Notes: generated by a model from the sequence alone, not told the origin. 64,000 nt of DNA from Escherichia coli (GCF_013315695.1 NZ_CP054353.1); one strand, 5' to 3'; counted from the first letter of the stretch, positions 1,653-33,399 are shown. Numbers and translations are program-made.

Positions 1653-1752
1653 ATATCTGTAATAAGAAATAGCCCTCGCCGCTTCCCTCTACAGGAATGG
1701 CGAAGGGCTGTCGGTTTCGACATGGTTGGCCATCATATGATGGCCTTTTTTA
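1653..1752 (+). ncRNA. sdhX: 3'UTR-derived sRNA of the sdh-suc transcript (SdhX/RybD-like), ending at the sucD terminator
   Basis: Position immediately downstream of the sucD stop, two consecutive hairpins, the second followed by a T-run; assignment rests on recalled K-12 biology, exact 5' end not determinable from sequence. Confidence 0.5.
1728..1751 (+). terminator. rho-independent terminator of the sdh-suc operon
   Basis: Perfect palindrome ggccatcatatgatggcc followed by tttttt. Confidence 0.75.
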
Positions 1753-1857
1753 TTCGGGCACTAATCTGAAAAGTTTGCCCACTGCTTTTTTTCCCCATCC
1801 TCTGCGCAATAATGCCCGGCGAAATATCTCCTCTCCGTTCTGTAAAAGGATTTATAC

Positions 1858-3051: not shown

Positions 3052-3428
3052 CGGTTAGCAAACAGGAGGCTATGTGGTGTTAGCCTCCTTACCCCCAGGC
3101 CAGTGGGAATATAGTAATCATCGTTTTTAACATTCAACGTCCAGATTCTGCTTGAGCGTAAAAACAAGTCTTTAGATATTTTATAAATGATGAAGGGCTG
3201 GAAAGTGGTTGATGTCACCGACTCACGATCGTTATCGCCAGCAAAGCTTTTTTGCCATTGCACCAGACGCACCTTCAACCATTTTGGCGACGAATCAACT
3301 GCTACCGCCACCAGGCTTGTTTGCCATTTTCCCGTACCTAATTCGTCGCTTGCCGCACTGTTGGCTGTAATCAATGGCCCAATGCCCAACCAGATACTTC
3401 TATATCCGATTGGGTTTTGTTAATTGCG

Positions 3429-4025
3429 TTACCCCTTAAACGTTAACCTCGGTCGAAATCTGACCGCTGGCTGAATTAATCCGGCTTCTTGTTGGGCTTC
3501 GATAACCGGACCAATATCTTTATAAGCAGCTGGCGCTTCTTCAATACGCCGTTCTTCGCGCAATGTGACGCATTGCCACGGCAACGTTGACTCTGCAGTC
3601 GCGCGTGAGCGCATGGCCTGCCGACGCTGGCTGCGTCCTGCTCCGTGACTGCAAGACCACAGCCACTCCGGGTTGCCGCAACCAACCGCAAGCCAGGAAT
3701 AATCACCCATGGAACCGGGGATTAACGCCAGATCGCCCGCGCGTGCCGGTGTTGTGGCCACCACAGCGCCAACGGGGACGCCATTGCCGGGATGAAAATC
3801 TGGCGTCGCGCACGTCTGGCGCACATAACCTGGGTGGTCTGGTAGCTTCACTTCTGCAAAATCAAGCAGTTGTGTTACTGCTTTTTCTTCCAGCGGCAGT
3901 TCGTCCGGCAGCAGTACGCGGGCACTGGCACCTGATGGACGAGATAATGAAACAATATTGTTGGCGCGGGAAAGTTGGATCCCTTTGCGCAGAAAGGCTT
4001 TATCAAGCCTTGAAAGATGATGCAT
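3429..4025 (-). CDS. RtcB-family (RNA 3'-phosphate ligase) C-terminal domain protein; probably a truncated remnant
   Basis: 198 aa containing the RtcB C-terminal hallmarks PGSMG, SHGAGR and EAPAAYKDI...RP...KG; the N-terminal metal-binding half of the family is missing. Confidence 0.55.
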   Translation of the reverse strand: MHHLSRLDKAFLRKGIQLSRANNIVSLSRPSGASARVLLPDELPLEEKAVTQLLDFAEVKLPDHPGYVRQTCATPDFHPGNGVPVGAVVATTPARAGDLALIPGSMGDYSWLAVGCGNPEWLWSCSHGAGRSQRRQAMRSRATAESTLPWQCVTLREERRIEEAPAAYKDIGPVIEAQQEAGLIQPAVRFRPRLTFKG

Positions 4026-4276
4026 AACGCTGTCCTGAAATATAGACGTTAAACAACCCCCTGTATTGCGAGGGTAATTTTGTCTTTCCGGTCAGCAGCC
4101 AGCAAAAGGGAAAGAAAACGCGCGTAGTGTATGTGGCGATAGCAAGTTTTACAAGTGGTAAATCTGGCTTATTGTTAAAGAGGAATTATCTTTTGTGAAG
4201 TCTTTTAAGGCCATGACTCATTCAATTTAACCGGACATAGATAATATATAACATAGGGTATATAAATTTATCATTG

Positions 4277-4405
4277 TATACTTGTCATAATTCAAGTTGC
4301 ATGTGCTGCATCGATGTTCGCTCACCCAGGTCACTTACTTATGTAAGTTTCTGGAAATTCATTATTTGTTCCCTTCCTGCAACTTGACTTATTTAGAGTA
4401 TATTC
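4277..4405. repeat. ERIC/IRU intergenic repeat, degenerate copy
   Basis: Contains ttcaagttgcatgtgctgc and cgctcacccaggtcacttacttatgtaag; about 80% identical to the copy at 49934-50062, which matches the ERIC1R/ERIC2 primer sequences. Confidence 0.8.
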
Positions 4406-4614
4406 ATGTATATGAATAATATTCTTGCAATAATAGCTTTAAAGTATTGCATGCGGATAACTGAGGTGAAATTCCTGTTTTAGGATTATTGTCACTTTAT
4501 TTTCCTGGTTAGACATATAGCTGACTGGTTTGTTTATTTGAATTATGATATTCATTAGTGCTACTGTTTTTTATAAAATAATTTTTGAATTGTTATTTTT
4601 TCACGGACGGCATT

Positions 4615-5520
4615 ATGCGAGGAAAAATACCTAAAACGGAACTGCTGGTGACTTTTGAGGTCGTCGCACGTCATGAAAGTTATACCAGAGCGGCAGAGGA
4701 GTTAGCGTTAACCCAAAGTGCAGTATTCAGACAAGTAAGTGCGCTGGAGGAATTTTTACATACTCCGTTATTTTCACACTCTAAAAAACGCATTTTTCTT
4801 AATGATGCAGGGAAGTATTACCTGGGGATAGTAAAAGAAACATTAAATAAGCTGGAACGCGATACCAATACCATTATGACCTGGCAGCCTACGGTTCAGG
4901 TTATTGAACTTGCCGTTAATCCTACTTTTAGTACCCACTGGTTAATCCCAAATTTACATGAATTCACAAAGTTACATCCCGATATTATTGTTAATATTCA
5001 TTCTTTAGCTAATAACGGCGACTTTCTTAATCGGGAGTACGATGCTGTCATTATGCGCGAAAATTTTTGCGCGCCCTGGGCGGAAGTAGAGTATCTCTTT
5101 GAAGAGGAGATTTTGCCGGTATGCAGCGGCAGTTTGCTTGCAATGTCCGATCAAAAACTGTCAGTGGCAGAACTGCTTACTGAGTTACCACTTCTGCATC
5201 AAAGCACCCGTATTACTGGCTGGGAAGAGTGGTTTGCTTTATCTGGCGTTAGCAGTCCGCTGGTCAATAACGGACCACGTTTCGATTTGCTTTCAATGCT
5301 GATTGCCGCCGTGCGCTCTAATCTCGGCGTGGCGCTGTTACCACGGTTCGCTATTCAACATGATTTGGATAGTGGCGATATGGTGATTCCCTGTGATGTG
5401 CCTATTCGTACCGGTAATCGTTTTATTATGACGTGGCAGGAAGAGAAGTCTGACTCACCGCACTTGCAGCAATTTCGTGAATGGTTGCTGGCGAAATCGG
5501 TCGTACCGCAGGAGATGTAA
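4615..5520 (+). CDS. LysR-family transcriptional regulator
   Basis: N-terminal HTH (ESYTRAAEELALTQSAVFRQVSALE) plus substrate-binding domain; ATG at 4615 preferred over the TTG-extended ORF at 4585. Confidence 0.85.
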   Translation: MRGKIPKTELLVTFEVVARHESYTRAAEELALTQSAVFRQVSALEEFLHTPLFSHSKKRIFLNDAGKYYLGIVKETLNKLERDTNTIMTWQPTVQVIELAVNPTFSTHWLIPNLHEFTKLHPDIIVNIHSLANNGDFLNREYDAVIMRENFCAPWAEVEYLFEEEILPVCSGSLLAMSDQKLSVAELLTELPLLHQSTRITGWEEWFALSGVSSPLVNNGPRFDLLSMLIAAVRSNLGVALLPRFAIQHDLDSGDMVIPCDVPIRTGNRFIMTWQEEKSDSPHLQQFREWLLAKSVVPQEM

Positions 5521-5523
5521 AAC

Positions 5524-5550
5524 CTGCGCCTGGCGGGATGCCAGGCGCAG
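5524..5550. terminator. bidirectional hairpin between the convergent LysR and adenosyltransferase genes
   Basis: 10-bp perfect stem ctgcgcctgg / ccaggcgcag with 7-nt loop. Confidence 0.6.
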
Positions 5551-5553
5551 TTA

Positions 5554-6156
5554 TTACCAGTCGATACCCGGCTGGGCCTGAATGCCGTTATCAAAAGCAT
5601 GTTTGACGGGGCGGATTTCGCTTACCGTATCCGCCATTTTTAATATCTGACTGTGGCAACCGCGTCCGGTGACAATGACACTTTGTTGTGCCGGGCGGTT
5701 TTGCAGAGAAGCGATCACTTCTTCGGTGTCCAGATAATGGTAAGCCAGCATATAGGTCAGCTCATCAAGCACCACTAAGTCGTAACGCTTGTCAGCCAGC
5801 ATCCGTTTGCTTTCCGACCAGACCTCTTTCGCCGCGTCGATATCCGCTTGCCGGTTCTGTGTCTCCCAGGTAAAACCGGTTCCCATAATATGAAACTCAA
5901 CCCCCAGCGGCTGGAGAAGGTTGTATTCGCCGTTGTCCCATTGCCCCTTGATGTACTGCGCAACCCCCACCGTTTTGCCATGACCCACCGCGCGCGTCAC
6001 AGTACCAAACGCGGCAGTGGATTTCCCTTTGCCGTTGCCGGTGAAAACAATCAAGATCCCTTTTTTCTCTATCGCCGCCGCGACGCGCGTATCGACCTGT
6101 TCCTTCAATTTCTGCTGGCGCTGCACATGCCGTTCAGTTGAAATTCGCGCTTCCAT
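5554..6156 (-). CDS. ATP:cob(I)alamin adenosyltransferase (CobA/BtuR family), second copy
   Basis: 200 aa; P-loop VFTGNGKGKSTAAFG; near-colinear with E. coli BtuR as recalled. Confidence 0.85.
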   Translation of the reverse strand: MEARISTERHVQRQQKLKEQVDTRVAAAIEKKGILIVFTGNGKGKSTAAFGTVTRAVGHGKTVGVAQYIKGQWDNGEYNLLQPLGVEFHIMGTGFTWETQNRQADIDAAKEVWSESKRMLADKRYDLVVLDELTYMLAYHYLDTEEVIASLQNRPAQQSVIVTGRGCHSQILKMADTVSEIRPVKHAFDNGIQAQPGIDW

Positions 6157-6165
6157 TCATTTTCC

Positions 6166-7818
6166 TTAATGTCCCGCAGGGCAACTGGCGCAGCGGTGTT
6201 TCTGCTCAAACTGACTAAAGAAATTATTGCCTTTATCATCTACCAGGATGAATGCGGGTAAATTTTCCACTTCCATCATCCACACCGCTTCCATACCCAG
6301 CTCCGGGTATTCCAGGCAACGCAGACTTTTGACATATTCTTGCGCCAGTAACGCAGCTGCACCGCCAATACTTCCCAGATTGAAGCCGCCATGTTTGTGA
6401 CAGGCATCGGTGACCTGCTGGCTGCGGTTACCTTTCGATAACATCACCAGACTGCCGCCAGCCGCCTGGAAGGTATCGACATAACCGTCCATTCGACCGC
6501 CCGTGGTTGGACCCAGTGAACCGCAGGCCATGTTCTCCGGTGTTTTCGCCGGGCCAGCGTAATAGACAATATGATGCTTCAGGTAATCCGGCATCGGTTC
6601 GCCGCTATCCAGCCGCGCTTTTATTTTGGCGTGGGCGATATCGCGCGCCACTACGATGGGACCACTTAACGACACGCGGGTGCCTACCGGTAATCTGGCG
6701 AGATCCTGCATCACGTCACGCAACGGACGATTTAGATCCAGCTGTACATGTTGCGCGTGATTTTCTTCCCGCAGTGAGGCTGGAATATATTGCCCCGGAT
6801 TGTGTTCGAGTTTTTCCAGCCAGATACCGTGCTTGTTAATTTTTGCTTTGATATTGCGATCCGCAGAACAGGAGAGCGTCATAGCTATCGGGCAAGAGCC
6901 ACCGTGACGCGGCAGACGAATGACGCGAATATCATGAGCGAAATATTTACCCCCAAATTGCGCACCAATACCAAATTGCTGACTGGCCTCGAGCAATACT
7001 TTTTCCAGCTCAATATCACGGAATGCTTGTCCTTGCTCGTTTCCGCTGGTGGGCAAATTGTCGTAATATTTCGTTGAGGCCAGCTTGGCAACTTTTAAGG
7101 TTTGATCGGCTGAAAGCCCTCCGACGACAAAGGCGATGTGGTAAGGCGGGCAGGCAGCGGTGCCCAGCGATTTCATTTTTTCGATTAAAAATGCGGTCAG
7201 TTTTTCTGGTTGCAATAGGGATTGGGTTTCCTGATAAAGCGCGGCTTTATTGGCAGAGCCGCCCCCTTTATTAATACAGAGAAAATGGTACTCATCACCA
7301 GCGACGGCGCTGATATCAATCTGCGCCGGGAGATTGGTTTGCGTATTGACTTCGGTAAACATATCCAGTGGCGCATTTTGTGAAAAGCGCAGATTATTTT
7401 CCTGAAAAGTGGTGTAAATGCCTTTGCTTAAGGCTTCAGCGTCGTTACCTCCGGTCCATATCTGTTGCCCTTTACTGGCAACAATAGTTGCGGTGCCGGT
7501 ATCCTGACAGTTGGGTAATACCCCTTTTGCTGAGACTTCAGCATTACGTAATAACTGCAACGCAACGTATTTATCATTACTACTGGCGTGCGGATCGTTA
7601 AGAATGCTGGCGACCTGTTGCAAATGAGCGGAACGTAAGAAAAAAGAGGCTTCATAAAATGCCTGCCGGGCAAGCAGCGTTAATGCTTCAGGAGCGATTT
7701 TTATCACTTCTTCGCCGTCTAATTCCGTTACTGTAATATGTTGATCGCTAATTAATGTATATTCTGTACCGTCTTTATTTTGTAGAAACGGTTCTTGCCA
7801 GATAAATGGTTTGGACAT
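6166..7818 (-). CDS. fumD: class I (Fe-S) fumarate hydratase family; probable mesaconase/fumarase FumD
   Basis: 550 aa, FumA/FumB-like length and N-terminus ([11 protein letters not shown]...); lies in the methylaspartate operon. Confidence 0.8.
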
Positions 7819-7925
7819 ATTTCACTTTTCACCTTAAACGTTAGTTTTACTTAATTGCCGTCTAACTTCATGATCCGGCTTATAAAAATGCGTAGTCATT
7901 GGCTTCTGATTGCTTAAGATCCCCC

Positions 7926-9206
7926 TCAGGGCAGAGCAACGTTCGATTCATTGGGTTTTAATGCTTTACCCCGACAGCCCTCGCCGAAATGTTCGCCTTC
8001 CCACCGACTCACCATCGCAGCGCCCATTGCGTTGCTCATGACGTTTGTCGCGGAACGCCCCATATCAAGGAACGGATCAACGCCCATCAGCAAGATCAGC
8101 CCCGCTTCCGGAATATTGAACTGGTTGAGCGTGGCGGCGATAACCACCATTGAGGCGCGTGGTACGCCAGCCATTCCTTTCGAGGTCAACATCAGGATCA
8201 ACAGCATGGTGATTTGCTCACCGATGGATAAATGGATATTGCAGGCCTGGGCGATGAAAACTGTGGCGAAGGAGCAGTAGGCCATTGATCCAACGAGATT
8301 AAATGAGTAGCCAATGGGTAAGACAAAGCTGGCAATTTTGGGGGAAACGCCAAATTGCTCCAGTTTTTCAAGCGTTCCCGGAAAAGCCGCTTCAGAACTG
8401 GATGTGGTAAATGCCAGCAGGGCGGGTTCCGAAAGGGCACGGGTCAGGCGTCTGATGCAGGGGCCGACATAAACGATGGCCAGACCGATAAGCAGCACCC
8501 AAAGTAACAACATGGTGAAATAAAATTCACCCATAAAGATCCCGGCGCTCACCATAACTGCCAGTCCTCGTTCAGCAATCAATGCTGAAATAGCGGCGAA
8601 TACGGTCAGGGGAGCGAAGAGCATGACGTAGCCAGTGAGCTTTAACATGGCATGTGCCAGCGAATCTAAGGCGTGAACGATGGCGCTGCCTTTCTCACCA
8701 ATCGCCGTCAGGCTACAGCCGAGGAAAATTGAGAACACCACGATTTGCAAAATTTCATTGTGCGCCATGGCATCGACAATGCTGGTGGGGAAAGCATGCG
8801 AAATAAATACTTTTAGTGTAAAGGGTTCTGACGCGACCACTCCGGTGGTTTCGGCACCGTGTGCAACAAAATTAATTCCTGTGCCTGGCATGAAGAAATT
8901 TACCGTTATCAAGCCTAAGGCAATTGACAGCAATGAGGCGCAAATAAATAAAAAGAGTGTTTTAGAAAAAATACGACCAAGGGCTTTGGCATCTCCCATT
9001 TTAGCTATACCTACCACCAGGGTAGAGACCACTAACGGAGCGATAATCATTTTTATCAGTCGTAAGAAAATCGTCGTGAATATCGATATTTCTTGCGCAT
9101 AGAGTTTTGCGGTTTCCGGTGAAGCAGTGTTATTGAGCACTACGCCGATAATCATTCCAAGTACCAGCGCCAAAAGAATCATCGTGGTTAAACTTATTTT
9201 CTTCAT
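7926..9206 (-). CDS. DctA-like dicarboxylate/amino acid:cation symporter (DAACS family)
   Basis: Polytopic membrane protein of DctA-like length; start moved to the ATG at 9206, which is preceded by GGAGGA. Confidence 0.8.
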   Translation of the reverse strand: MKKISLTTMILLALVLGMIIGVVLNNTASPETAKLYAQEISIFTTIFLRLIKMIIAPLVVSTLVVGIAKMGDAKALGRIFSKTLFLFICASLLSIALGLITVNFFMPGTGINFVAHGAETTGVVASEPFTLKVFISHAFPTSIVDAMAHNEILQIVVFSIFLGCSLTAIGEKGSAIVHALDSLAHAMLKLTGYVMLFAPLTVFAAISALIAERGLAVMVSAGIFMGEFYFTMLLLWVLLIGLAIVYVGPCIRRLTRALSEPALLAFTTSSSEAAFPGTLEKLEQFGVSPKIASFVLPIGYSFNLVGSMAYCSFATVFIAQACNIHLSIGEQITMLLILMLTSKGMAGVPRASMVVIAATLNQFNIPEAGLILLMGVDPFLDMGRSATNVMSNAMGAAMVSRWEGEHFGEGCRGKALKPNESNVALP

Positions 9207-9251
9207 TTTTTCCTCCATCAGGTGCACGGCGATAAATCAGAATCAGGAGAA

Positions 9252-9283
9252 GTAGATGCCTGAATAGAGATTCAGGCATCTAC
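9252..9283 (-). other. intercistronic stem-loop (14-bp perfect stem, 4-nt loop) inside the operon
   Basis: gtagatgcctgaat agag attcaggcatctac; no U-run follows on the transcribed strand. Confidence 0.5.
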
Positions 9284-9366
9284 CTGCTATTACAACCTTA
9301 CAAATAGCTGAAGTGTTGAACTGCAATAAGTGACGGGATGTCAGTTGGCTAAAAGTATTCGGATTT

Positions 9367-9684
9367 TTACAAATCGAAACTCATATTTAATAAAGGTGCA
9401 TGTTGCTGTGCACCATAGACATCATTGTCACCTACATTCCCGGAGATAATATCTCGTGGCATGACGATTTTTACTGCGTTAGAAGGATCAAACCAGACAA
9501 TACGGTGAATAAAGTCAGGTTCAACATGATATAAGCGCGCAATCAGTTCTGGGGTTAATTGCCCTGATGATTTAACTCGCTCATAGTTTTCTTTCGTTTT
9601 AAATAAAATATCTAAAACCAGTTCGTAAGGTCCGGCATTTTTCGAACGAATGACTTGCGCCAGTGAGACAATTGACTGTTTCAT
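9367..9684 (-). CDS. small protein of unknown function (DUF4387/AtuB-like by recollection)
   Basis: 105 aa ORF whose start overlaps the stop of the upstream gene by 4 nt (translational coupling). Confidence 0.6.
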   Translation of the reverse strand: MKQSIVSLAQVIRSKNAGPYELVLDILFKTKENYERVKSSGQLTPELIARLYHVEPDFIHRIVWFDPSNAVKIVMPRDIISGNVGDNDVYGAQQHAPLLNMSFDL

Positions 9685-11051
9685 GCCTGAACTCCTTCTG
9701 GCGTCACCTGTTCAATATGGAAATCAAAACGCAGAGCGTCGTTGGCTTCAATCAGGTGATATATGGAAAATTCGTATACCGGCCCGCCCTGGATATCAGA
9801 AGGGGAGAACGGGAACGCCAGATTGCCTGCGGTAGCGATGCGGTTTTCATAGCCGTAGTGCAGCATGGTAGAGCGCACCAGCGAGCAAACGCTATTGGCA
9901 ATTTCCTGGGTCGGTGCAACTACATCAAGGACAATCCCCAGCTCATGCCCGGCAGTTTGCATCGGTTCATGGTCGCCCATCACCCCGTTTTTGCCGTACA
10001 GGTGGAAATTGATGCGAATGCTGTCATCGTCGAGCGACAGGTTACGCCAAACGCTGGTTTTGACTTCATCGATGATTTTATCGATCCCGGCGATCATGAT
10101 CGGGTCGCGCGTTCCTGCGATGGTCAGACAGCGGAAGCCCACCCGTCGCGCACCTTCCAGTTTCAGGGCATACGGCGTTTCTTCATGCTTAGAACCGCTG
10201 ACGTACACTTCGCCGTCATTGACCGCTTTAAATGTGCAGCCTTTCAGGTTCAACACGCCGCCAGGTCCAGGCAGGAAGTAGGGATCGGATTTCTCATACA
10301 GTGTGTGTGCAGCCGCTGACGTTTCGGTAAATTTACGCTTCGGATTAAATGTCTTCAGCGTAAAGCCGTTGTCATCAATGATGCCCATCGCACAGTCAGA
10401 GCCTGAGCCGGGCGTTGCGGCGATTGCCGCGCATTCAAGGATTTTCCCACAATGCAGCGCCAGACCTTCATCAAAGCCTTGCATGATCGGGAGCGCAGCA
10501 AAGCAGGCCGGGTCGTAAGCGCGCCCGCCCAGCACCACTTGCGCGCCTTCTTTCAGCGCCCGCTGGAAGGGTTCGATGCCCATTTGCGCGACGATATACG
10601 TACTTTCGTCAATCGCGTCGTGGGTTAACGGCGGGACAAAATCCAGCGCCGTGATTTTGCCGTTATCCAGCGCCTGGTGGACGATGGCTTTGTCAACGTC
10701 TGCCGGGATCAACGCCATCGAGAACGAGAGGTGCTCTTCCTGGGCAATCTCATGAATTATTTCTCGGCACCACTCCAGGTGTGGTGCGGCACCAGAACCG
10801 CCAGCTGTTCCGATCACCACCGGTATATTATTTTGCACGCCTGCGGTGATCATATAGCGCAGATCGCGCTTGACCCCTGCGCGATCGGTAAACGGTTTGC
10901 CTGCCCCGAGGTAGTGGGGGCCTGGATCGGAAGAGCCTGCATCAACGGCGATCAGATCGGGCGATTCTGCCATCGCTTTGCGGAAGCTCTCTTCCGGGAA
11001 TCCATACCCGAGGATTGCCGTTGGCGATAAGACTTTAAAAGAACGAGCCAT
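9681..11051 (-). CDS. DUF1446 (AtuA-like) family protein, function unknown
   Basis: 456 aa; family assignment is from memory of the N-terminal region and is unverified. Confidence 0.6.
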   Translation of the reverse strand: MARSFKVLSPTAILGYGFPEESFRKAMAESPDLIAVDAGSSDPGPHYLGAGKPFTDRAGVKRDLRYMITAGVQNNIPVVIGTAGGSGAAPHLEWCREIIHEIAQEEHLSFSMALIPADVDKAIVHQALDNGKITALDFVPPLTHDAIDESTYIVAQMGIEPFQRALKEGAQVVLGGRAYDPACFAALPIMQGFDEGLALHCGKILECAAIAATPGSGSDCAMGIIDDNGFTLKTFNPKRKFTETSAAAHTLYEKSDPYFLPGPGGVLNLKGCTFKAVNDGEVYVSGSKHEETPYALKLEGARRVGFRCLTIAGTRDPIMIAGIDKIIDEVKTSVWRNLSLDDDSIRINFHLYGKNGVMGDHEPMQTAGHELGIVLDVVAPTQEIANSVCSLVRSTMLHYGYENRIATAGNLAFPFSPSDIQGGPVYEFSIYHLIEANDALRFDFHIEQVTPEGVQA

Positions 11052-11054
11052 TTG

Positions 11055-12296
11055 TTAATCCTTAGCCTGCAACAGCGCGATAGTACGATTCATTTCGTTG
11101 AAGACGATATCGAGGCCTTCGTCAAAGCCCATCCCTGGCTTTACCAGCATACGCATAGGGCGAGCGGCAAGGGCGACGTGGACACAGGTGCGGGCACTGA
11201 CATCAGTTTCATTGCAGGTGCCGCCCTGGTACGCTTCCATGCTGTGGCTGTTGCAGTAAAGAACCGCATCGACGATGTTGTGAATACTGCCCAGATCCGG
11301 GGTTTTGATTTGCACCATGTGACAACTGGCGGCATCAGTGAAATCAACAATATCCTGGTAGGTGTTACACCATTCATCGGCCACAATTTTCACGCCGGAA
11401 CCGAGGCGCGTCAGCTCTTTGGTAATCGCGGTCAGCAGGCGAATTTGATCGGGCTTGTTACCGGCATCGACCGGCCCTTCAATGTAGAGCGGCAGGCCTT
11501 GCGCTTCTTTTTCCAGGCTGGCGATGTATTGCGCACAGCGAAGCGGATCCATATCGAAGATCAGGCCGATAGTGCCGTATACATCGATGTGCAGGGTTGG
11601 GTGGTAGCGTGCGCTGGTGCGCTTGCTCAGAATACGATCCGACAGCCAGCGGACATATTCGCGCAGTTTTTCACCTTTAAAGCCCAGTTTCTCTTCGACG
11701 TTATTAATCAGTGCATGGGGCAGCACGTCGATGCCCTTAAGGATCATCTTATCGACGGCGATATATCGATCGTCCCCGCTCTGACCAAATAATGGAATGG
11801 ATTCCGCCACGCGTGGCAACTGCCATTCATCACAGACCACTTCAGTTTTCAGACGGCCGGTTGCCAGCGCGGTAGCATCAAGCAGCGCCTGTGATAATCC
11901 GTAGCGCACGGCGGTATGCAGCAAGTTGCCGTCAATACGCAATTTGTCGAAGAAACGGGCATTCGGCAGGAAAGCATCCACATCGCGGCCTATCAGTAAT
12001 GGCTTGATATGGTCGTTGAGGAACGGAATAAAGTGCTCAGCGAGGAACAGTGGATCGCGACCACCTGCCCCGGAATACTGTACGGCAGCACAGTCACCTA
12101 CGGCGACCGCGCCGTTTTCCAGAATCAACTGTACCGATACGCACTCCCCGGCCTGACGAACGGCGTTAAACCCCTGTGTTACCGGCTCCCCGGTATAAAA
12201 AAAGCCGTCATGACCCGCTCCGTTTTTTATCGCCTGCTGGTCATCGAAATAGAATGAGGAGTAGCCAGCAGTGAACAGAGCCTGTTTTATTTTCAT
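11055..12296 (-). CDS. mal: methylaspartate ammonia-lyase (beta-methylaspartase)
   Basis: 413 aa; N-terminus MKIKQALFTAGYSSFYFDDQQAIKNGAGHDGF matches clostridial MAL. Confidence 0.9.
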   Translation of the reverse strand: MKIKQALFTAGYSSFYFDDQQAIKNGAGHDGFFYTGEPVTQGFNAVRQAGECVSVQLILENGAVAVGDCAAVQYSGAGGRDPLFLAEHFIPFLNDHIKPLLIGRDVDAFLPNARFFDKLRIDGNLLHTAVRYGLSQALLDATALATGRLKTEVVCDEWQLPRVAESIPLFGQSGDDRYIAVDKMILKGIDVLPHALINNVEEKLGFKGEKLREYVRWLSDRILSKRTSARYHPTLHIDVYGTIGLIFDMDPLRCAQYIASLEKEAQGLPLYIEGPVDAGNKPDQIRLLTAITKELTRLGSGVKIVADEWCNTYQDIVDFTDAASCHMVQIKTPDLGSIHNIVDAVLYCNSHSMEAYQGGTCNETDVSARTCVHVALAARPMRMLVKPGMGFDEGLDIVFNEMNRTIALLQAKD

Positions 12297-13741
12297 TATG
12301 GTCTTCCTATTAATTTACTGTGGGATACAGCATTGATGTCATCTACAACCATCTGGAATGTCGGTTGGCGTCCTTCAAAGCGTGCGCGTTCCGCAACGTA
12401 ATCGTGGTGGAGGTCGAGAATATCTTTTGGCAATGGAACGGCTCCGGCTTCCAGTACGCGTATCGCGCCGGTGTTGTCACGGACCGGAAGAATTTTGCCC
12501 GCGTTGCAGGCGGCTGGCGCAAACGGCACATCCAGTACGCCCGCTTCAAATGCCAGCACCGTACCGCGCGCAATATCACCATTACCCAGTTCGAACACTT
12601 TATTCAGTACCGCGTGAACCTCGCTCTTAATCAGTTCAATTTCCAGTTCAACCGCAGGGCACGGCGGGAATTTCTGCTCGTTGACCATGTTGAGCATCTG
12701 GCGGGAGGCTTTCAGCCCCTGAATGTTGGCAGCGGCAGTCGGGATGCCCCAGGCTTCGTGCGGACTTTTGGTGATGACTTTGGTGGCACCAGACATCCCC
12801 GCGACGGCTGCGCCCCAGGAGATAATAGCGAACGCTTTCGATTCGTCTTCCGGAAAGCCGCCCATCCACTGGTGAAACACGGTACTTAATTCATAGTCGG
12901 TATAGCCATAGCTCTGAAAATATTCGTGTGCAAGTTCACGCAGAGACTGGATCGCCGCAACATCCTGCGTCAGGCTGCCGACCTGTCCATAACCAACGGT
13001 GATAGATTTCACACCCTGTTCCAGCGCCAGTAATCCTTCGATTATCGCGATAGAGTGCGAGATAAACGGCGGGATCAGGGTACCCGTTAGTGGGCCAAAC
13101 GGTTCGCGGTTGATGCGGATCCCGTGTTCTTCATACATCCCCATTAAACGGTCGCAGTACTGCCAGTCGCGGATCGATTTTTCCAGCGTTACGCGCTTGG
13201 CATACGGAATGTTGTAGGAAATGCCGCCGCCTTCATAACTGGTAAAGCCGCTGGCCATCGAGATTTCAGCCAGCAGACGCGCATCTGGCGTGCCGTGGCG
13301 GATCTGTAGCGGTTTTTGCAAAGTTTCGGTGAGGCGACGGCAAGCTGCGACGCCGTGGTTAACGACCGGTAAACCGTTCAGTTTAGAGGTTCCGGCTTCG
13401 ATGGATTTTTTAATCCCTACAGCCGCTTCTTCGTACCGATTCAGACGGGTATATGCGTCGATGGTGCTCGGCAGCAGATCGCATTCTTCTTGTAGTGTTT
13501 TCAGTAGTTCGATGTGTTCGTCCATCAGCGCCACGCCTGCGCGCGGTTGGCTAAGAGTTTTACCTTCCTTGTCTGCTTTCAGCAGGGCAAGAGAGAAGCG
13601 TTTATGCTCAGGAATGGTTTGTTGGTATTTAACGCCATCTTCAAAGTTTTCAACATCCTTGCCGGTTTCCCAGGTTTTCAGTACCTGTTGCCGCTCGGTC
13701 ATGAATTCGTCATGGGTTAATTTCTTATTTCGAAGTTCCAT
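12296..13741 (-). CDS. glmE: glutamate mutase epsilon (E) subunit
   Basis: 481 aa; N-terminus MELRNKKLTHDEFMTERQQVLKTW resembles clostridial GlmE/MutE. Confidence 0.88.
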   Translation of the reverse strand: MELRNKKLTHDEFMTERQQVLKTWETGKDVENFEDGVKYQQTIPEHKRFSLALLKADKEGKTLSQPRAGVALMDEHIELLKTLQEECDLLPSTIDAYTRLNRYEEAAVGIKKSIEAGTSKLNGLPVVNHGVAACRRLTETLQKPLQIRHGTPDARLLAEISMASGFTSYEGGGISYNIPYAKRVTLEKSIRDWQYCDRLMGMYEEHGIRINREPFGPLTGTLIPPFISHSIAIIEGLLALEQGVKSITVGYGQVGSLTQDVAAIQSLRELAHEYFQSYGYTDYELSTVFHQWMGGFPEDESKAFAIISWGAAVAGMSGATKVITKSPHEAWGIPTAAANIQGLKASRQMLNMVNEQKFPPCPAVELEIELIKSEVHAVLNKVFELGNGDIARGTVLAFEAGVLDVPFAPAACNAGKILPVRDNTGAIRVLEAGAVPLPKDILDLHHDYVAERARFEGRQPTFQMVVDDINAVSHSKLIGRP

Positions 13742-13759
13742 TGATTGCAGCCTTAATTG

Positions 13760-15148
13760 TTATAGGGTTAAGCATTGAATACTGGTGCGCGCGGCGGCCA
13801 GCGGATCGACTCTGGCGACGTTTGCCAGCAGTGGTAATAGCCCCCGGGAATCGCGGTAATATTCAAATTCGGTCGGTAAGAGAATGCGTTTACCGTCGTC
13901 GTTTAACTCGCGGTATTTCAACCAGTGATGCATATCGAACTGACTGGCACGCGAGAGCCATCCGCCGGATCCGACGACTTTACGCACGGTTGTCAGGTCA
14001 CGTCCCATCTGTAAATCGACATTGCCGACGCAGGTGCAGACCTCTTTTTTGGTGCCCGCATGTCTTTCGGTGGCATAACCCACACACAGTCCGGCCAGGA
14101 CTGTATCGAAATATTTTTCTTCTGCATTCGCGGGTAAGTAGTCGGGATGAGCGACTAGATGACGGAGGTAATGATAAAAAGCGTCCAGCTGTGCGGGTTG
14201 CTGAGCAAAATTCACATTGACTAACTCTTTCGCACTTTCACCAACCACCATTGCCGAGACGCGCATTCCCAGATCGCCTTCCACCGTCCGTTTCACGAAG
14301 GGTTCCGGTACGCCGTGTAAAACGGTGTCGGGCGAGAGCGTGTTGGCACAGGCGGAATAGACATCGGTGGTTGCGCCACCCATGTCGATCAGTATGAACT
14401 CTTTCCAGCTGTGATCGACATTACTGATTGCCTTAACCAGTTCAAAGACTGTCCACGGTGTCGGCATTGGTTCTTCGCCTGTTTTATCAACAACGACATC
14501 CAGCCCTTTCCCTTTAACGATGCGTTTAAGGAATATGTCGCAGATAGCCTGGCGTGCAGCTAAAGGGTTCGGATGGTCAAGATCGGGCAGAACGTTGTCG
14601 ACGATGGTCAGGTCTTTATGCCCTAGGATCTCCTGCACCTCGTCCTGAATATCCCGGTTTCCGGCATAAATAATGGCGCAGTCGAGTTTGGATTCTGCCA
14701 GCACACGGGCGTTATTCAGGCCGTAGCTTTCTTCTCCGCCGTCGGTGCCGCCGGTGAACAAGAGAATATCGGGCTGCGTTTCTTCCAGTGCCTGGATATC
14801 ACGGCGGTTCAGCTTGTAGGAGTAATATTGCGCAATTTTAGCCCCCGCAGAGTGAGCGGTTACTTTCGCGGTTTCCAGGGTGATAGAAGGCACCAATCCC
14901 ATTGCGGCAACCGCCAGCCCACCTTTGGCAGAGGAGGAATACTTCAATGCAACCTCACCGTTGTTAAACAGGGGGAGGGTATTATCTACGTTTAACACCA
15001 GGTTCAGGCTGGAGAAAAACCCCTTCGCCAGATGATGGGTGGTGGTTGGGGTCAGTACGTGGTTAACCAACGTTAACGCGTCCCCCTCCCGGGCGAAGAG
15101 GGCTGCTTTGGTCCACGTCGATCCAATATCGACAGAGACGATTTGCAT
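13760..15148 (-). CDS. glmL: glutamate mutase L component (MutL/GlmL)
   Basis: 462 aa, the size of clostridial GlmL; sits between the S and E subunit genes. Confidence 0.8.
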   Translation of the reverse strand: MQIVSVDIGSTWTKAALFAREGDALTLVNHVLTPTTTHHLAKGFFSSLNLVLNVDNTLPLFNNGEVALKYSSSAKGGLAVAAMGLVPSITLETAKVTAHSAGAKIAQYYSYKLNRRDIQALEETQPDILLFTGGTDGGEESYGLNNARVLAESKLDCAIIYAGNRDIQDEVQEILGHKDLTIVDNVLPDLDHPNPLAARQAICDIFLKRIVKGKGLDVVVDKTGEEPMPTPWTVFELVKAISNVDHSWKEFILIDMGGATTDVYSACANTLSPDTVLHGVPEPFVKRTVEGDLGMRVSAMVVGESAKELVNVNFAQQPAQLDAFYHYLRHLVAHPDYLPANAEEKYFDTVLAGLCVGYATERHAGTKKEVCTCVGNVDLQMGRDLTTVRKVVGSGGWLSRASQFDMHHWLKYRELNDDGKRILLPTEFEYYRDSRGLLPLLANVARVDPLAAARTSIQCLTL

Positions 15149-15597
15149 CAGATTGCCTCTTCAAGAATACGAGTATCAACGTCATGACGTTGGTTGATAT
15201 CGTGTGCCATCAGCTGACAAACATCTTCTAAGTCATGACTTGGGGCAAAGACGCGATCAAATCCCATCTCTTTGAATTTGGTTTCCACGTCAGCGAAGTC
15301 ATGTTTTCCGACCACCAGGTTACCGCCCACATAGAGCAGGATGTCCCCCAGTCCACGCTCGATGCAGCGTTCGCGCATGCCCAGACAGTCGATATCGCCA
15401 TGCCCATAGATAGAGGAGACGACAATCGCGTCAGCGCCAGTTTCAATGGCCGCATCAATATATTCGTCCTGGCTGACCATTACGCCCAGATTAATGACTC
15501 TGAAGCCATGGTTGCTAAAAACGCGGTCCAGAACTTTATTGCCTACTGCATGGCAGTCCGCGCCAATAACGCCAATCACAAGTGTTGCTTTCTTCAT
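15148..15597 (-). CDS. glmS: glutamate mutase sigma (S) subunit, cobalamin-binding
   Basis: B12-binding domain; start taken at MKKATLV (15597), preceded by AAGGA, rather than the longer ORF from 15660. Confidence 0.85.
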
Positions 15598-16143
15598 GGG
15601 TAATCCTTTGTAAGACAGAGAGTAAAATAAGTTACACACGTCGTATTTATGGCCGTTCATAACGGCACAGGTTTAATATCACAGGAGTGTCTTTATCTGA
15701 CCGTAATGTTGCAATTGATCTATTTTCAAAATGTCTTTCGGGAAATGATTGTTTAAAGTATGTTGTTAAATTCTCATGTTAATTCAGTGTGTTATGTCAA
15801 CTAATGTCATGAATGTTAAATTTTTAAAATTAACTTGATTTGGTGTATTGAGGTATTTGTGATCTACTTCTAATTTGCATTTTAGTGATATGGGTTTAGC
15901 CATGAGTAAATGCATTTCATAAAATTTAAGTCGAATTTCACTGCAATTCATCTCTGCTTAATGTAAAAATAATGTTGAAAATAACAAATGGTTAATGATT
16001 CATGCGAATTATGACCTTAGTTAGCTCTTTTGATTTTTCGTAAAAAAGAGAGGTACATGAAGGTGCTACCAGTATGAGTAACGTTAATCAAAGGTTTTAT
16101 TACGTCTGGCAATAACGCAGGCCATTTTCGCGACTGGGTGGAT

Positions 16144-16566
16144 TTAATCAGTATAATCCTCATACAATAGTTCACGATTAACTGAACCGTTAACGGGGAT
16201 TTGGTGTTGAAATTTAGAAATGGCGGAGTCAATTAATGAAGACAATATCGAAAAAATGACAGTGTCAGAATTAATTTCAATTAATCCTTCTCGTTGTTGA
16301 CCAAAAAAGATATTTATCTTGATTTCATTTGTACTACGGCAATCAATATGTAGTAATTTTTGATCGCTGAGATTTTCTGTTTCATAAATGTTTTTGGCGA
16401 TAGTCGGATGTATTGATGCCAGACATCTGCTCAGATAAGCCAGATCCTTTAGGGAACACCCCGCTGAGTAGAGGATGTCAGAGAATTTTTGTGTGTTAAC
16501 TGTTGTCTCTGAAGCGTATGTTGCATTGACAGGAAGGGTGTTGAAAGAGATTTGAGATGGGAGCAT
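16144..16566 (-). CDS. hypothetical protein, no recognisable domain (AT-rich)
   Basis: 140 aa ORF, Ser/Thr/Asn-rich N-terminus; same strand and 80 bp downstream of the 314-aa ORF. Confidence 0.55.
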   Translation of the reverse strand: MLPSQISFNTLPVNATYASETTVNTQKFSDILYSAGCSLKDLAYLSRCLASIHPTIAKNIYETENLSDQKLLHIDCRSTNEIKINIFFGQQREGLIEINSDTVIFSILSSLIDSAISKFQHQIPVNGSVNRELLYEDYTD

Positions 16567-16646
16567 TATTTAAATCTTTCCGTGAGTAATAAAAATTAAT
16601 CCCCGGGCATTGTTTAGCAATATTTGCCACAGGTAATATATAAAAA

Positions 16647-17591
16647 TTAAAGTATTTGATTGGCATCGGTTAACTGATCAATAACCAGTGCCAGATTGGT
16701 AAACATTTTGAAAAAGCGATACTGGCTCGGAATATCTCTTTCAAAGACGAAACATTCAATGTCATTGTTTGAAAAATAAAGGACTAGTGTTGCTGATTCG
16801 TCAGGAAAAATATGGAAATATATCTGGTTACCAGAAGGAGGATAGTCCAGAAGAAGGGTATCTTTGCCCGTCACATACCTGTTGTGGTCGTGGATGCTGC
16901 GCTCACACTTCATCAGAGGTGTCATGATACTCATGTATTCATCTGATGTTAATATATTAAAATCACCATCCATTTTAAAGAAACGATAAAGTAACAGTAC
17001 ATCCTCTTGCGTAACCGGTTCGTTTGTTTTTAGAGGGAAATAAGTGGGAACCAGAAGATGAGGTTCTAATCTATTTTGTTGAGCGCTATAACTAAATTTG
17101 AACATAAATTCCGGATCGCTCATCAATTGAGCGACATAATTATGCCTGGCTTCAAAAATTTTAACTTTTATCAGGTTAAATAAGTCTGTTTCGTCATCCT
17201 GTATTAAAAGACATTGGCCATAGCAGCCAGGCTTTTTTTCATTATAAGCAGAAACGGTTATTCTGTCAGGAGTGTCAACGTTATATCCAAAAGCCAGATA
17301 GTGACCGTCCTCATCGAGATTTGTTTCCAGGTTATTTAAATTTATCACATGAAGTGTTTGCAATGCTGATTCAATGAGCTGTTGACTCTCTGAGGTAAAT
17401 GTTTCGCGCTGCGTTGTATAAAGTGTATCGATTCCAACGACTATCCGATATGGGTCAAGGATGGCGGCAATCATCTTTATTACCTGCACAGCCACGGGTG
17501 ATGTCATTGATTCGTTATCTGTTTTTAGAGGATCATTAGATGGCCAACCTGAGAAGCGATTGACAGCCGAACCGATATTATCAGGACTCAT
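16647..17591 (-). CDS. hypothetical protein, no recognisable domain (AT-rich)
   Basis: 314 aa ORF, acidic and Phe/Tyr-rich; GAGG RBS about 9 nt upstream of the ATG. Confidence 0.6.
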   Translation of the reverse strand: MSPDNIGSAVNRFSGWPSNDPLKTDNESMTSPVAVQVIKMIAAILDPYRIVVGIDTLYTTQRETFTSESQQLIESALQTLHVINLNNLETNLDEDGHYLAFGYNVDTPDRITVSAYNEKKPGCYGQCLLIQDDETDLFNLIKVKIFEARHNYVAQLMSDPEFMFKFSYSAQQNRLEPHLLVPTYFPLKTNEPVTQEDVLLLYRFFKMDGDFNILTSDEYMSIMTPLMKCERSIHDHNRYVTGKDTLLLDYPPSGNQIYFHIFPDESATLVLYFSNNDIECFVFERDIPSQYRFFKMFTNLALVIDQLTDANQIL

Positions 17592-17949
17592 AGCAGCAAC
17601 CTCATTGTAATCAAGCGAGGCGCTGAGCGTACTCGGCTATAGAAAAACTAACTTGCAAAAATCGCTCATTTTTCATTTATCAGGCGAAAGTGGTCTCTGT
17701 TCACTCAGAAACAATCACTCCCGCTAAGTCATACCTGTTTCATCGATACACTTAAGTGATTATTACTAATGAAACAATAACATAACGGGCTTACGGCCGG
17801 TGCTCATAAAGGCAACAATCAATTAACTTTGATAAAAATATGTTATGTAAAATAGCAACAAATTGGCTAATCTAATCAATTGGTATTATAAAAAGTGGAT
17901 AAGGCGGTTCTGTTAAATAAAACACTGGTTTTTTATCTATACCTTTTCA

Positions 17950-18396
17950 TTGTAATAATTGTGTTGCATAAATATTTCACAATAAATTAACAATAAAATC
18001 ACCAATGATCTATGGTTTATACATAATTAACATATTTGGTTGGTTTTGATATAAATCAATTTTTAATTCTTGAAAAAAATCTGCAAAACACGATAAATTG
18101 TCGTAGATCAAATTGGTGAGATCGTGACAATTTCGCTATAAATTGATCACTGTCGAAAAATGCAAATTTGCTCAATAAAAACCTGTTTATTGTAAGGATT
18201 TTGCGGCGTAATATAATTACGGGATCAATTTGGTTTATTCATTAACATATTTGTAACTTTTTTATCATTGTCTTTTCCTCTTTTGATGAAATGGCAACGA
18301 TAGAGGCGAGCAAATAATTTTGTATTGGGGCATGCGTGTGACCCTTTCTAACGGGGTTCACTCTCGGAGTCTTCATGCGATGAGCAAGGAGTCATG
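17950..18396 (+). promoter_or_regulatory. cydAB promoter/regulatory region
   Basis: Long AT-rich leader upstream of cydA with a repeated ggtttat-N-attaacatatttg motif (18014-18047 and 18229-18258) and TTGAT-like half sites; exact sites not resolved. Confidence 0.45.
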
Positions 18397-19965
18397 ATGT
18401 TAGATATAGTCGAACTGTCGCGCTTACAGTTTGCCTTGACCGCGATGTACCACTTCCTTTTTGTGCCACTGACGCTCGGTATGGCGTTCCTGCTGGCCAT
18501 TATGGAAACGGTCTACGTCCTTTCCGGCAAACAGATTTATAAAGATATGACCAAGTTCTGGGGCAAGTTGTTTGGTATCAACTTCGCTCTGGGTGTGGCT
18601 ACCGGTCTGACCATGGAGTTCCAGTTCGGGACTAACTGGTCTTACTATTCCCACTATGTAGGGGATATCTTCGGTGCGCCGCTGGCAATCGAAGGTCTAA
18701 TGGCCTTCTTCCTCGAATCCACCTTTGTAGGTCTGTTCTTCTTCGGTTGGGATCGTCTGGGTAAAGTTCAGCATATGTGTGTCACCTGGCTGGTGGCGCT
18801 CGGTTCAAACCTGTCCGCACTGTGGATTCTGGTTGCGAACGGCTGGATGCAAAACCCAATCGCGTCCGATTTCAACTTTGAAACTATGCGTATGGAGATG
18901 GTGAGCTTCTCCGAGCTGGTGCTTAACCCGGTTGCTCAGGTGAAATTCGTTCACACTGTAGCGTCTGGTTATGTGACTGGCGCGATGTTCATCCTCGGTA
19001 TCAGCGCATGGTATATGCTGAAAGGTCGTGACTTCGCCTTCGCTAAACGCTCCTTTGCTATCGCTGCCAGCTTCGGTATGGCTGCCGTTCTGTCTGTTAT
19101 TGTTCTGGGTGATGAATCTGGTTACGAAATGGGCGACGTGCAGAAAACCAAACTGGCTGCTATTGAAGCCGAGTGGGAAACGCAACCTGCGCCTGCTGCC
19201 TTTACTCTGTTCGGCATTCCTGATCAGGAAGAGGAGACGAACAAATTTGCGATCCAGATCCCTTACGCGCTGGGCATCATTGCAACGCGTTCCGTGGATA
19301 CTCCAGTTATCGGCCTGAAAGAACTGATGGTGCAGCATGAAGAACGCATTCGTAACGGGATGAAGGCGTACTCTCTGCTCGAGCAACTGCGTTCTGGTTC
19401 TACCGACCAGGCGGTTCGTGACCAGTTCAATAGCATGAAGAAAGACCTCGGTTACGGTCTGCTGCTGAAACGCTATACGCCAAACGTGGCTGATGCGACT
19501 GAAGCGCAGATTCAACAGGCAACCAAAGACTCCATTCCGCGTGTAGCGCCGCTGTACTTCGCGTTCCGTATTATGGTGGCGTGTGGCTTCCTGCTGCTGG
19601 CAATCATCGCGCTCTCTTTCTGGAGTGTCATCCGCAACCGCATTGGCGAGAAAAAATGGCTGCTGCGCGCCGCGCTGTACGGTATTCCGCTGCCGTGGAT
19701 TGCTGTAGAAGCGGGCTGGTTCGTGGCTGAATATGGCCGCCAACCGTGGGCTATCGGTGAAGTGCTGCCGACAGCTGTGGCGAACTCGTCACTGACCGCA
19801 GGCGATCTCATCTTCTCAATGGTGCTGATTTGCGGCCTGTATACCCTGTTCCTGGTGGCAGAATTGTTCTTAATGTTCAAGTTTGCACGCCTCGGCCCAA
19901 GCAGCCTGAAAACCGGTCGCTATCACTTTGAGCAGTCTTCCACGACTACTCAGCCGGCACGCTAA
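18397..19965 (+). CDS. cydA: cytochrome bd-I ubiquinol oxidase subunit I
   Basis: 522 aa from [28 protein letters not shown]. Confidence 0.97.
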
Positions 19966-19980
19966 GACAGGAGTCGTCAA

Positions 19981-31918: not shown

Positions 31919-32145
31919 AGGATGCTCCTGTTATGGTCGTTATGTCGGATAACCTCTTCCAACAGTGCATTTGCAGGTGAATATAAGGCAATGGTTTAAG
32001 ATTTCAGCCAGGCAAAGATACCCAGCAGAGAATCTTGAAATAATTAACAAACAAAGGAGTTACAGTTAGAAATTGTAGGAGAGATCTCGTTTTTCGCGAC
32101 AATCTGGCGTTTTTCTTGCTAATTCCAGGATTAATCCGTTCATAG

Positions 32146-32163
32146 TGTAAAACCCCGTTTACA
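32146..32163 (+). promoter_or_regulatory. TyrR box in the aroG promoter
   Basis: tgtaaa accccg tttaca, a perfect TGTAAA-N6-TTTACA. Confidence 0.7.
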
Positions 32164-32233
32164 CATTCTGACGGAAGATATAGATTGGAAGTATTGCATT
32201 CACTAAGATAAGTATGGCAACACTGGAACAGAC

Positions 32234-33286: not shown

Positions 33287-33295
33287 AGTTTAATT

Positions 33296-33370: not shown

Positions 33371-33399
33371 AATGTGCTCCATTGTTAGCAACGACAAAC

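Follow-up and report, generated by a model that had tools for sequence, protein, structure and literature searches.

A methylaspartate operon of Escherichia coli predicted to encode a complete route from L-glutamate to pyruvate, acetate and ammonia

The interval 5554-15660 of a 64,000-nt stretch of Escherichia coli DNA (hereafter the window) very probably represents the known enterobacterial methylaspartate (mesaconate) operon, a chromosomal island encoding every step from L-glutamate to pyruvate, acetate and ammonia. A first-pass annotation of the same DNA had the route end at mesaconate or citramalate. This end point has to be revised: two overlooked genes inside the interval match the solved citramalate lyase CmlAB, so the encoded route would continue to pyruvate and acetate. 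The operon itself is already known, the FumD cluster having been described in 2015 (Kronen and Berg, PMC4682846), and the first-pass annotation was right to call it not novel.

Organization of the operon

The minus-strand gene array was present across the whole interval and comprised nine full-length, co-directional genes (Table 1). From glmS to cmlB, neighbouring starts and stops overlapped or lay 3-18 nt apart; the glmL start overlaps the glmS stop, and cmlB starts within cmlA, with 4 nt in common. Profile matches and conserved catalytic residues bore out the label of every gene that had been named before, and the earlier list was incomplete in omitting cmlA and cmlB. NCBIfam curated cut-offs were exceeded by GlmS, GlmL, GlmE, methylaspartate ammonia-lyase (MAL), the fumarase and CobO, and the transporter fell below its cut-offs. 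Plus-strand ORFs inside the operon, such as that at 11052-11792 (246 aa), were interpreted as shadow ORFs opposite the minus-strand genes.

Table 1. Features of the methylaspartate island and its surroundings. Bit scores are followed by the cut-off of the model where there is one.
Feature	Description	Length	Coordinates	Strand	Evidence
Operon	glmS-glmL-glmE-mal-cmlA-cmlB-SDF transporter-fumD-cobO, intact, tightly packed	nine genes	5554-15660	minus	
glmS	glutamate (methylaspartate) mutase, B12-binding subunit S	149 aa	15148..15597	minus	NCBIfam NF002612, 253 bits (110)
glmL (mutL)	glutamate mutase accessory/reactivating protein	462 aa	13760..15148	minus	NCBIfam accessory_GlmL, 508.6 bits (475); glmL_fam, 884 bits
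glmE	glutamate mutase, catalytic subunit E	481 aa	12296..13741	minus	TIGR01503, 864 bits (390)
mal	3-methylaspartate ammonia-lyase	413 aa	11055..12296	minus	TIGR01502, 544 bits (286)
cmlA	predicted citramalate lyase large subunit, AtuA/DUF1446 family	456 aa	9681..11051	minus	PDB 9ERQ/9EVF match; Pfam PF07287
cmlB	predicted citramalate lyase small subunit, DUF4387	105 aa	9367..9684	minus	9ERQ_B match; Pfam PF14330
SDF transporter	dicarboxylate/amino acid:cation symporter, SDF family	426 aa	7926..9206	minus	NCBIfam, below cut-offs
fumD	class I (Fe-S) fumarase/mesaconase	550 aa	6166..7818	minus	NF011921 (class I fumarate hydratase PRK15392), 1279 bits (1060)
cobO	cobO/cobA-type cob(I)alamin adenosyltransferase	200 aa	5554..6156	minus	NF004637, 296 bits (185)
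LysR gene	LysR-type regulator (GcvA-like), convergent with cobO	301 aa	4615..5520	plus	GcvA subfamily model, 221 bits (288)
Hairpin	terminator-like, directly after the cobO stop, common to the convergent LysR gene		5524..5550	minus	fold
Stem-loop	perfect 16-bp stem, in the 160-nt cmlB-transporter spacer		9250..9285	minus	fold
Upstream region	AT-rich, upstream of glmS, GC about 35-43%	546 bp	15598..16143	minus	

The likeness to the FumD cluster of O157:H7, which had been pointed out before, was close. Gene content, order, orientation and the sucD-cydA site were the same as in Sakai, and the proteins were 97.8-100% identical to ECs_0755-0764. As in the published cluster, fumD was found together with glmS, glmL, glmE, mal, the DUF1446 gene, a GltP-like transporter, CobA and an LTTR. 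The island is situated between sucD/sdhX and cydA, and the upstream orphan genes of Sakai, ECs_0766 and ECs_0767, are present as well. The window differs in that sdhX and the LysR gene, 547 bp apart in Sakai, are separated by an extra 2.8 kb (1754-4596) with genes for a TPR protein and a hypothetical protein as well as an RtcB fragment. The annotated region of strain MSB1_4I was 100% identical to the window.

From glutamate to citramalate

Glutamate mutase is dependent on adenosylcobalamin. GlmS matched PDB entries 1I9C/1CCW (E 1e-50) and retained the cobalamin-binding DxHxxG motif as D14, H16 and G19. GlmE was 58.8% identical to the C. cochlearium protein (6H9E_B; E 5e-190), with all of the substrate-binding residues kept: the arginine claw formed by R66, R100 and R149, as well as E171, Y177 and Y181 (C. 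cochlearium numbering). Both the S-subunit motif and the E-subunit residues expected of an adenosylcobalamin-dependent glutamate mutase were thus present. MAL could be aligned without gaps to the enzyme of Citrobacter amalonaticus (1KKO; E 5e-270), and retained catalytic K331 and H194, the Mg ligands D238, E273 and D307, and residues Q172, Q329, T360, C361 and L384. Loss of similarity or of catalytic residues, which would have spoken against the earlier annotation, was accordingly not seen in GlmE, GlmS or MAL. The glmS start is most likely the ATG at 15597, which follows an AAGGA ribosome-binding site at a distance of 7 nt, coincides with the RefSeq start and agrees with a profile alignment beginning at residue 22 of the 170-aa ORF; by the same evidence, the ATG at 15660, which opens that longer ORF, is an unlikely start.

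CobO matched Salmonella CobA (1G5R; E 2.5e-88) and contained the P-loop GNGKGKST. In FumD, C104, C223 and C317 were conserved, in three motifs that align with the conserved cysteine motifs of L. major FH. FumD was 98.0% identical to the characterized ECs_0757 (ECs0757), for which kcat/Km was 2x10^6 with mesaconate versus 7.5x10^5 with fumarate (PMC4682846). On the strength of this identity to a measured enzyme, FumD is predicted to be a mesaconase.

According to family assignment and the catalytic residues, GlmS and GlmE together with adenosylcobalamin would convert glutamate to (2S,3S)-3-methylaspartate. From what is known of their families, GlmL would maintain the activity of the mutase and CobO would re-adenosylate salvaged cobalamin. 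MAL would then yield mesaconate and ammonia from methylaspartate, and FumD would convert mesaconate to (S)-citramalate, as measured for the 98%-identical O157:H7 protein. E. coli does not synthesize B12 de novo, and the route would therefore require an external corrinoid.

Distribution, regulation and maintenance of the island

The module had been described as unusual for Escherichia. This was overstated, as the operon is carried by 1138 of 5426 complete E. coli genomes (21%), and in 1117 of the carriers 80% or more of the surrounding 12-kb query stretch is present. Beyond E. coli, the order glmS-glmL-glmE-mal-cmlA-cmlB recurs in three distant lineages, with CmlA identities of 62-66%; it is also found in Yersinia, Aeromonas and Pseudescherichia, where an SDF gene likewise follows cmlB. 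Two co-directional genes upstream of the operon (16144-17591) were rejected as parts of the pathway. They are absent from the clusters of Pseudescherichia, Yersinia and Aeromonas and had no match in padloc, NCBIfam, PHROG or Pfam, and the 314-aa gene of the pair is unrelated to the ~315-aa conserved gene that follows cmlB in distant clusters.

In Sakai, Yersinia, Aeromonas and Pseudescherichia, too, a LysR gene is found with the cluster, and Kronen and Berg list the regulator as an LTTR (PMC4682846). It is presumed to regulate the operon, whose expression probably needs this adjacent regulator plus a signal. The hairpin at the end of cobO has an 11-bp stem, 9 pairs of which are G-C, followed by GUUUU (-28.1 kcal/mol, z = -4.9). 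The stem-loop between cmlB and the transporter gene, in an 86-nt context of -28.8 kcal/mol (z = -4.3; 0 of 200 shuffles were as stable), may be a partial terminator or an mRNA-stabilizing element. Upstream of glmS, the region at 15598-16143 contained no sigma-70-like site on the operon strand and no FNR site within 2 mismatches. The best CRP-like site there had 2 mismatches, and CRP-, sigma-54- and ArcA-like matches were weak only. An Rfam search of positions 1-20000 (E ≤ 1) returned no match, and thus no cobalamin riboswitch upstream of glmS.

Between the window and Sakai, the nine genes have accumulated 112 synonymous and 30 non-synonymous differences, corresponding to a pN/pS of 0.08. The operon is under purifying selection. 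This ratio between two diverged E. coli lineages, together with nine full-length genes and the retention of the island in so many genomes, makes it unlikely that the operon is intact but cryptic, a silenced, horizontally acquired island without a physiological role, even though the upstream region is AT-rich and without a consensus promoter, the pathway is reliant on external B12, and the O157:H7 genes were expressed under no tested condition, the strain not growing anaerobically on glutamate with or without cobalamins and displaying no detectable MAL activity (PMC4682846). MAL activity was, moreover, reported by Kato and Asano, as cited in PMC4682846, to be widespread among enterobacteria. 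With the operon, a fifth of complete E. coli genomes, O157:H7 included, hold the genetic means for the fermentation of glutamate, which is abundant in the gut, by a route that relies on corrinoids from other microbes. This is relevant to competition for niches and may matter for the fitness of pathogens.

The transporter and the entry substrate

The SDF-family transporter matched DctA (314 bits, cut-off 513) and GltP (304 bits, cut-off 638) about equally, both below cut-off. Its start was placed at the RefSeq position, 9206, rather than at the GTG at 9227. Kronen and Berg name this transporter GltP (PMC4682846). It is presumed to be a glutamate importer, and as such would perform the first step of the pathway. 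The slightly higher score for DctA would also suit a pathway in which the main substrate is taken up as a C5-dicarboxylate or amino acid (mesaconate, citramalate or methylaspartate, for example) and the mutase is only a side entry, and according to a 2026 preprint mesaconate can be used with no more than FumD and CmlAB. Such a role is quite unlikely, however, for an operon in which four of nine genes (glmS, glmL, glmE and cobO) serve the glutamate-methylaspartate step only and which is headed by glmS-glmL-glmE in every lineage examined.

The predicted citramalate lyase CmlAB

CmlA and CmlB were, respectively, 92.5% and 84.6% identical to the subunits deposited as 'Citramalate lyase subunit A/B (cmlA/cmlB)' in PDB entries 9ERQ/9EVF, the comparison for CmlB being with chain 9ERQ_B, 'Citramalate lyase, subunit B (cmlB)'. 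These entries were released in October 2025, and their titles describe complexes with AMPPNP and citramalate and with ADP and pyruvate. CmlB matched Pfam DUF4387 (E 3e-39), and the match of CmlA to AtuA was moderate (E 1e-18, 68 bits, residues 63-394); CmlA as modelled here had no solved structural relative. In combining a large subunit of the AtuA family with a neighbouring small DUF4387 subunit, the pair has the arrangement of the solved enzyme. CmlA orthologues form a tight group, with >60% identity across phyla and always accompanied by DUF4387 and mal, and the cmlAB pair directly follows mal in every cluster examined. According to NCBIfam, none of the nine operon products matched the CitD/E/F families of citrate or citramalate lyases.

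A literature search found no primary publication on CmlAB, only the 2026 preprint, which describes use of the Raoultella planticola Cml (Berg laboratory) as a citramalate lyase in vivo. The assignment is thus based on PDB titles, the methods of one preprint and synteny. On these grounds, the E. coli proteins are predicted to be the orthologue and to split (S)-citramalate into pyruvate and acetate, the last step of the proposed pathway.

It is very improbable that the pathway instead stops at mesaconate or (S)-citramalate with the AtuA/DUF4387 pair unrelated to citramalate cleavage: in 2015, the DUF1446 gene was without known function, the fate of citramalate was called unclear and citramalate lyase activity was not found in O157:H7 extracts (PMC4682846), but those extracts came from cells in which the operon was unexpressed, no ATP is named among the assay components described (PMC4682846), and the identities, the Raoultella enzyme and the position after mal all point to a lyase. 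CmlAB as the missing citramalate lyase would answer the question of the fate of citramalate raised in 2015. In public records, the pair is still labelled 'AtuA family protein' and 'DUF4387' (RefSeq) or '3-methylaspartate ammonia-lyase' and 'acyl-CoA synthetase' (Sakai), and the practical value of the present assignment is a corrected annotation of cmlA and cmlB. All of this is already familiar to the specialists behind the deposited structures.

The AMPPNP-citramalate and ADP-pyruvate complexes suggest that cleavage is nucleotide-dependent, possibly through an acyl-phosphate. More tentatively, and as a combination that we regard as possible but doubtful, CmlAB would be ATP-coupled, the AtuA family at large would consist of nucleotide-dependent lyases, and the silence of the operon in the laboratory would reflect a requirement for a gut signal acting via the LysR regulator. 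In that case, CmlAB would phosphorylate citramalate to yield pyruvate and acetyl phosphate, from which acetate kinase or Pta could recover ATP or make acetyl-CoA, and the enterobacterial pathway would differ from the clostridial one in mechanism and energetics. The answer on ATP coupling is probably already known to the depositors of 9ERQ/9EVF. AtuA of the acyclic terpene utilization cluster of Pseudomonas belongs to the same Pfam family as CmlA, PF07287, to which the match is moderate. AtuA was once proposed to be a lyase that releases acetate from a 3-hydroxy-3-alkyl acid, a chemistry that would be analogous; if the combined reading is true, AtuA-family proteins including that of Pseudomonas would be nucleotide-dependent acetate-releasing lyases.

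Comparison with the clostridial pathway

In C. tetanomorphum and C. cochlearium, the cluster comprises glmS-mutL-glmE-mal, mesAB and a citDEF-type citramalate lyase (PMC4682846). The two systems share their chemistry from glutamate as far as citramalate, and GlmS, GlmE and MAL are homologous with conserved catalytic residues. The description of the route as clostridial-type is therefore apt for its first three steps. By contrast, the combination of MesAB and a CitDEF-like lyase was not found in the window: instead of the two-subunit MesAB there is one FumA-type chain of 550 aa as the mesaconase, and citramalate cleavage is assigned to the AtuA/DUF4387 heteromer CmlAB, predicted to bind a nucleotide, and not to a CitDEF-like acyl-carrier complex. 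The island also has its own adenosyltransferase and SDF transporter, and its regulator is of the LysR type instead of the clostridial GntR.

Layout and enzymes of the operon

The window is part of the E. coli chromosome, and its positions 5000-17000 match strain MSB1_4I at 100% identity. The operon for glutamate conversion that the first-pass annotation had recognised is real, comprising nine co-directional ORFs on the minus strand at 5554-15660. The genes that it named were right, but two, lying between mal and the transporter gene, had been left out. These are cmlA and cmlB; these names and fumD are our usage and do not appear in the RefSeq record. The start of glmS is most likely the ATG at 15597 rather than 15660.

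Positions of the operon genes, their neighbours and a gene of related clusters
Feature	Coordinates	Strand	Remark
TPR protein, 385 aa	1894-3051	+	2.8-kb segment
hypothetical protein, 125 aa	3012-3389	-	2.8-kb segment
RtcB fragment, 198 aa	3429-4025	-	2.8-kb segment
LysR-type regulator	4615-5520		convergent with cobO
cobO	5554-6156	-	RefSeq: cob(I)yrinic acid a,c-diamide adenosyltransferase
fumD	6166-7818	-	RefSeq: class I fumarate hydratase
transporter	7926-9206	-	RefSeq: dicarboxylate/amino acid:cation symporter
cmlB	9367-9684	-	RefSeq: DUF4387 domain-containing protein
cmlA	9681-11051	-	RefSeq: acyclic terpene utilization AtuA family protein
mal	11055-12296	-	RefSeq: methylaspartate ammonia-lyase
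glmE	12296-13741	-	RefSeq: methylaspartate mutase subunit E
glmL	13760-15148	-	RefSeq: mutase accessory protein
glmS	15148-15597	-	RefSeq: methylaspartate mutase subunit S (strain MSB1_4I)
orphan gene, 140 aa	16144-16566	-	just upstream of glmS, co-directional
orphan gene, 314 aa	16647-17591	-	just upstream of glmS, co-directional
post-cmlB gene, 313-318 aa	L006:11677-12618, L004:11698-12654, L007:11712-12665		non-enterobacterial clusters

Each named enzyme scored above the curated cut-off of an equivalog or subfamily model in NCBIfam. Compared with characterised enzymes, GlmS, GlmE, the ammonia-lyase, FumD and CobO keep their catalytic motifs, the residues counted as catalytic being those we take to be so from published structures. 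GlmS has the DxHxxG motif (D14, H16, G19), and GlmE, which shares 58.8% identity with its C. cochlearium counterpart, retains R66, R100, R149, E171, Y177 and Y181. The ammonia-lyase aligns without gaps to Citrobacter 1KKO, with K331, H194, Q329 and the Mg ligands in place. In FumD, all three cysteine motifs aligned with the Leishmania class I enzyme are conserved, and CobO has the CobA P-loop. The transporter, previously described as DctA-like, does resemble DctA, but it resembles GltP equally and reached the NCBIfam cut-off for neither.

From glmS to cmlB, the junctions are gene overlaps or gaps of 3-18 nt, and the spacers upstream of the transporter gene (160 nt) and fumD (107 nt) are longer. 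The GC content of the operon is mostly about 50-56%, near that of the flanking core genes, falling to about 43-45% at these two spacers; the adjoining sequence is AT-rich (35-38% GC). The cmlB-transporter spacer holds a perfect 16-bp stem-loop (9250-9285, minus strand; -28.8 kcal/mol and z = -4.3 for its 86-nt context); the U-rich tail behind it is not of the canonical terminator type. At this stem-loop the operon might be divided in two, with the catabolic core on one side and transporter-fumD-cobO on the other. A strong hairpin (5524-5550) lies between cobO and the LysR gene.

Relation to the published cluster

The operon had been called not novel, and this holds. Kronen and Berg described the O157:H7 cluster in 2015, including the DUF1446 gene, GltP, FumD, CobA and an LTTR, and reported it in 26.5% of E. 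coli strains (PMC4682846). The O157:H7 Sakai locus (ECs_0755-0764) shares the layout and site of the operon, with proteins 97.8-100% identical and a pN/pS of 0.08, indicating purifying selection. Given the published cluster and the matching Sakai locus, the finding is already known. Mesaconase activity of the O157:H7 FumD is known from the literature, its preference for mesaconate having been measured; the same authors could not find an expressing condition and called the fate of citramalate unclear (PMC4682846).

Citramalate lyase genes

The first-pass annotation ended the pathway at mesaconate/citramalate; cmlA and cmlB move this end point. The cmlA and cmlB products match AtuA (PF07287) and DUF4387, respectively, in Pfam and nothing in NCBIfam, which has no model for either. 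CmlA and CmlB are 92.5% and 84.6% identical, respectively, to chains A and B of PDB 9ERQ/9EVF, which the depositors named 'Citramalate lyase, subunit A (cmlA)' and 'subunit B (cmlB)'. Judged by sequence, FumD is an orthologue of the characterised FumD, and CmlAB of the solved CmlAB. According to the literature, Cml splits citramalate into pyruvate and acetate. The citramalate question left by the 2015 paper has since been closed through the 2025 structure depositions. A literature search returned no primary paper on the CmlAB enzyme; a 2026 preprint made use of the enzyme of Raoultella planticola, supplied as a gift by I. Berg.

The Sakai record (31934-33618 of the Sakai stretch, L003) labels cmlA '3-methylaspartate ammonia-lyase' and cmlB 'acyl-CoA synthetase'. 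Public annotation of both lyase genes (9367-11051 in the window), in Sakai and RefSeq, is misleading.

In the structures, citramalate is bound together with AMPPNP and pyruvate together with ADP; these ligand pairs are the sole hint that ATP would have a catalytic role in CmlAB. More speculatively, the reaction might proceed from citramalyl-phosphate to acetyl-phosphate. For the 2015 citramalate lyase assay, the mixture as described names no ATP, and the extracts used did not express the operon (PMC4682846); its negative result is therefore no argument against CmlAB. The SDF-type transporter would carry glutamate, and the LysR protein would regulate the operon.

Conservation of gene order

The order glmS-glmL-glmE-mal-cmlA-cmlB is found in three unrelated contexts whose CmlA homologues are only 62-66% identical: one Rifleibacterium genome and two organisms of metagenomic origin. 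In Yersinia, Aeromonas and Pseudescherichia the genes stand in this order too, with an SDF transporter gene after cmlB and a LysR gene near each cluster; fumD is present in the Yersinia and Pseudescherichia clusters and cobO in that of Aeromonas. Because the order recurs across these lineages, the cmlAB pair is, on comparative grounds, part of the conserved core of the pathway and no passenger.

In non-enterobacterial clusters, a conserved gene follows cmlB. Its product carries the Walker A motif GVIGAEGAGKSTLI, and copies from three distant lineages are 61-62% identical. It had no Pfam match and only P-loop-level matches in NCBIfam and PDB, and the E. coli window contains no homologue (best tblastn E 0.1). 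The protein could serve the mutase or the lyase as an accessory NTPase.

Island site and neighbouring genes

The island (1752-18020; 16.3 kb) replaces mngR-mngA-mngB of K-12 (765150-771085; 2650-8585 of the K-12 stretch, L002), extending from where sdhX ends to 373 bp upstream of cydA. Among 5426 complete genomes, 3884 have mngAB and 1138 (21%) the glm island; these separate counts are consistent with the two being alternative occupants. The sucD/sdhX-cydA interval is a replacement hotspot.

After sucD, positions ~1653-1751 align at 98% to K-12 sequence that bears the annotation of the sRNA SdhX. Despite this match, Rfam gave no hit over 1-20000 at E <= 1, so SdhX seems to lie outside the Rfam models. 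Between sdhX and the LysR gene is a 2.8-kb segment (1754-4596), in place of which Sakai has 547 bp. The RtcB fragment in this segment is probably a gene remnant, since it covers just the C-terminal ~110 of 379 RtcB model positions.

The two orphan genes lie in sequence of 35-38% GC. Searches of padloc, NCBIfam, PHROGs and Pfam found nothing for their products. Sakai has the two genes as ECs_0766 and ECs_0767, whereas the clusters of Yersinia, Aeromonas and Pseudescherichia lack both. In a set of 5.8 billion proteins, relatives of the 314-aa protein form only five clusters, the sole named one being from E. coli. In the comparison with Sakai, pN/pS is 0.61 for the 314-aa gene and 0.08 for the operon.
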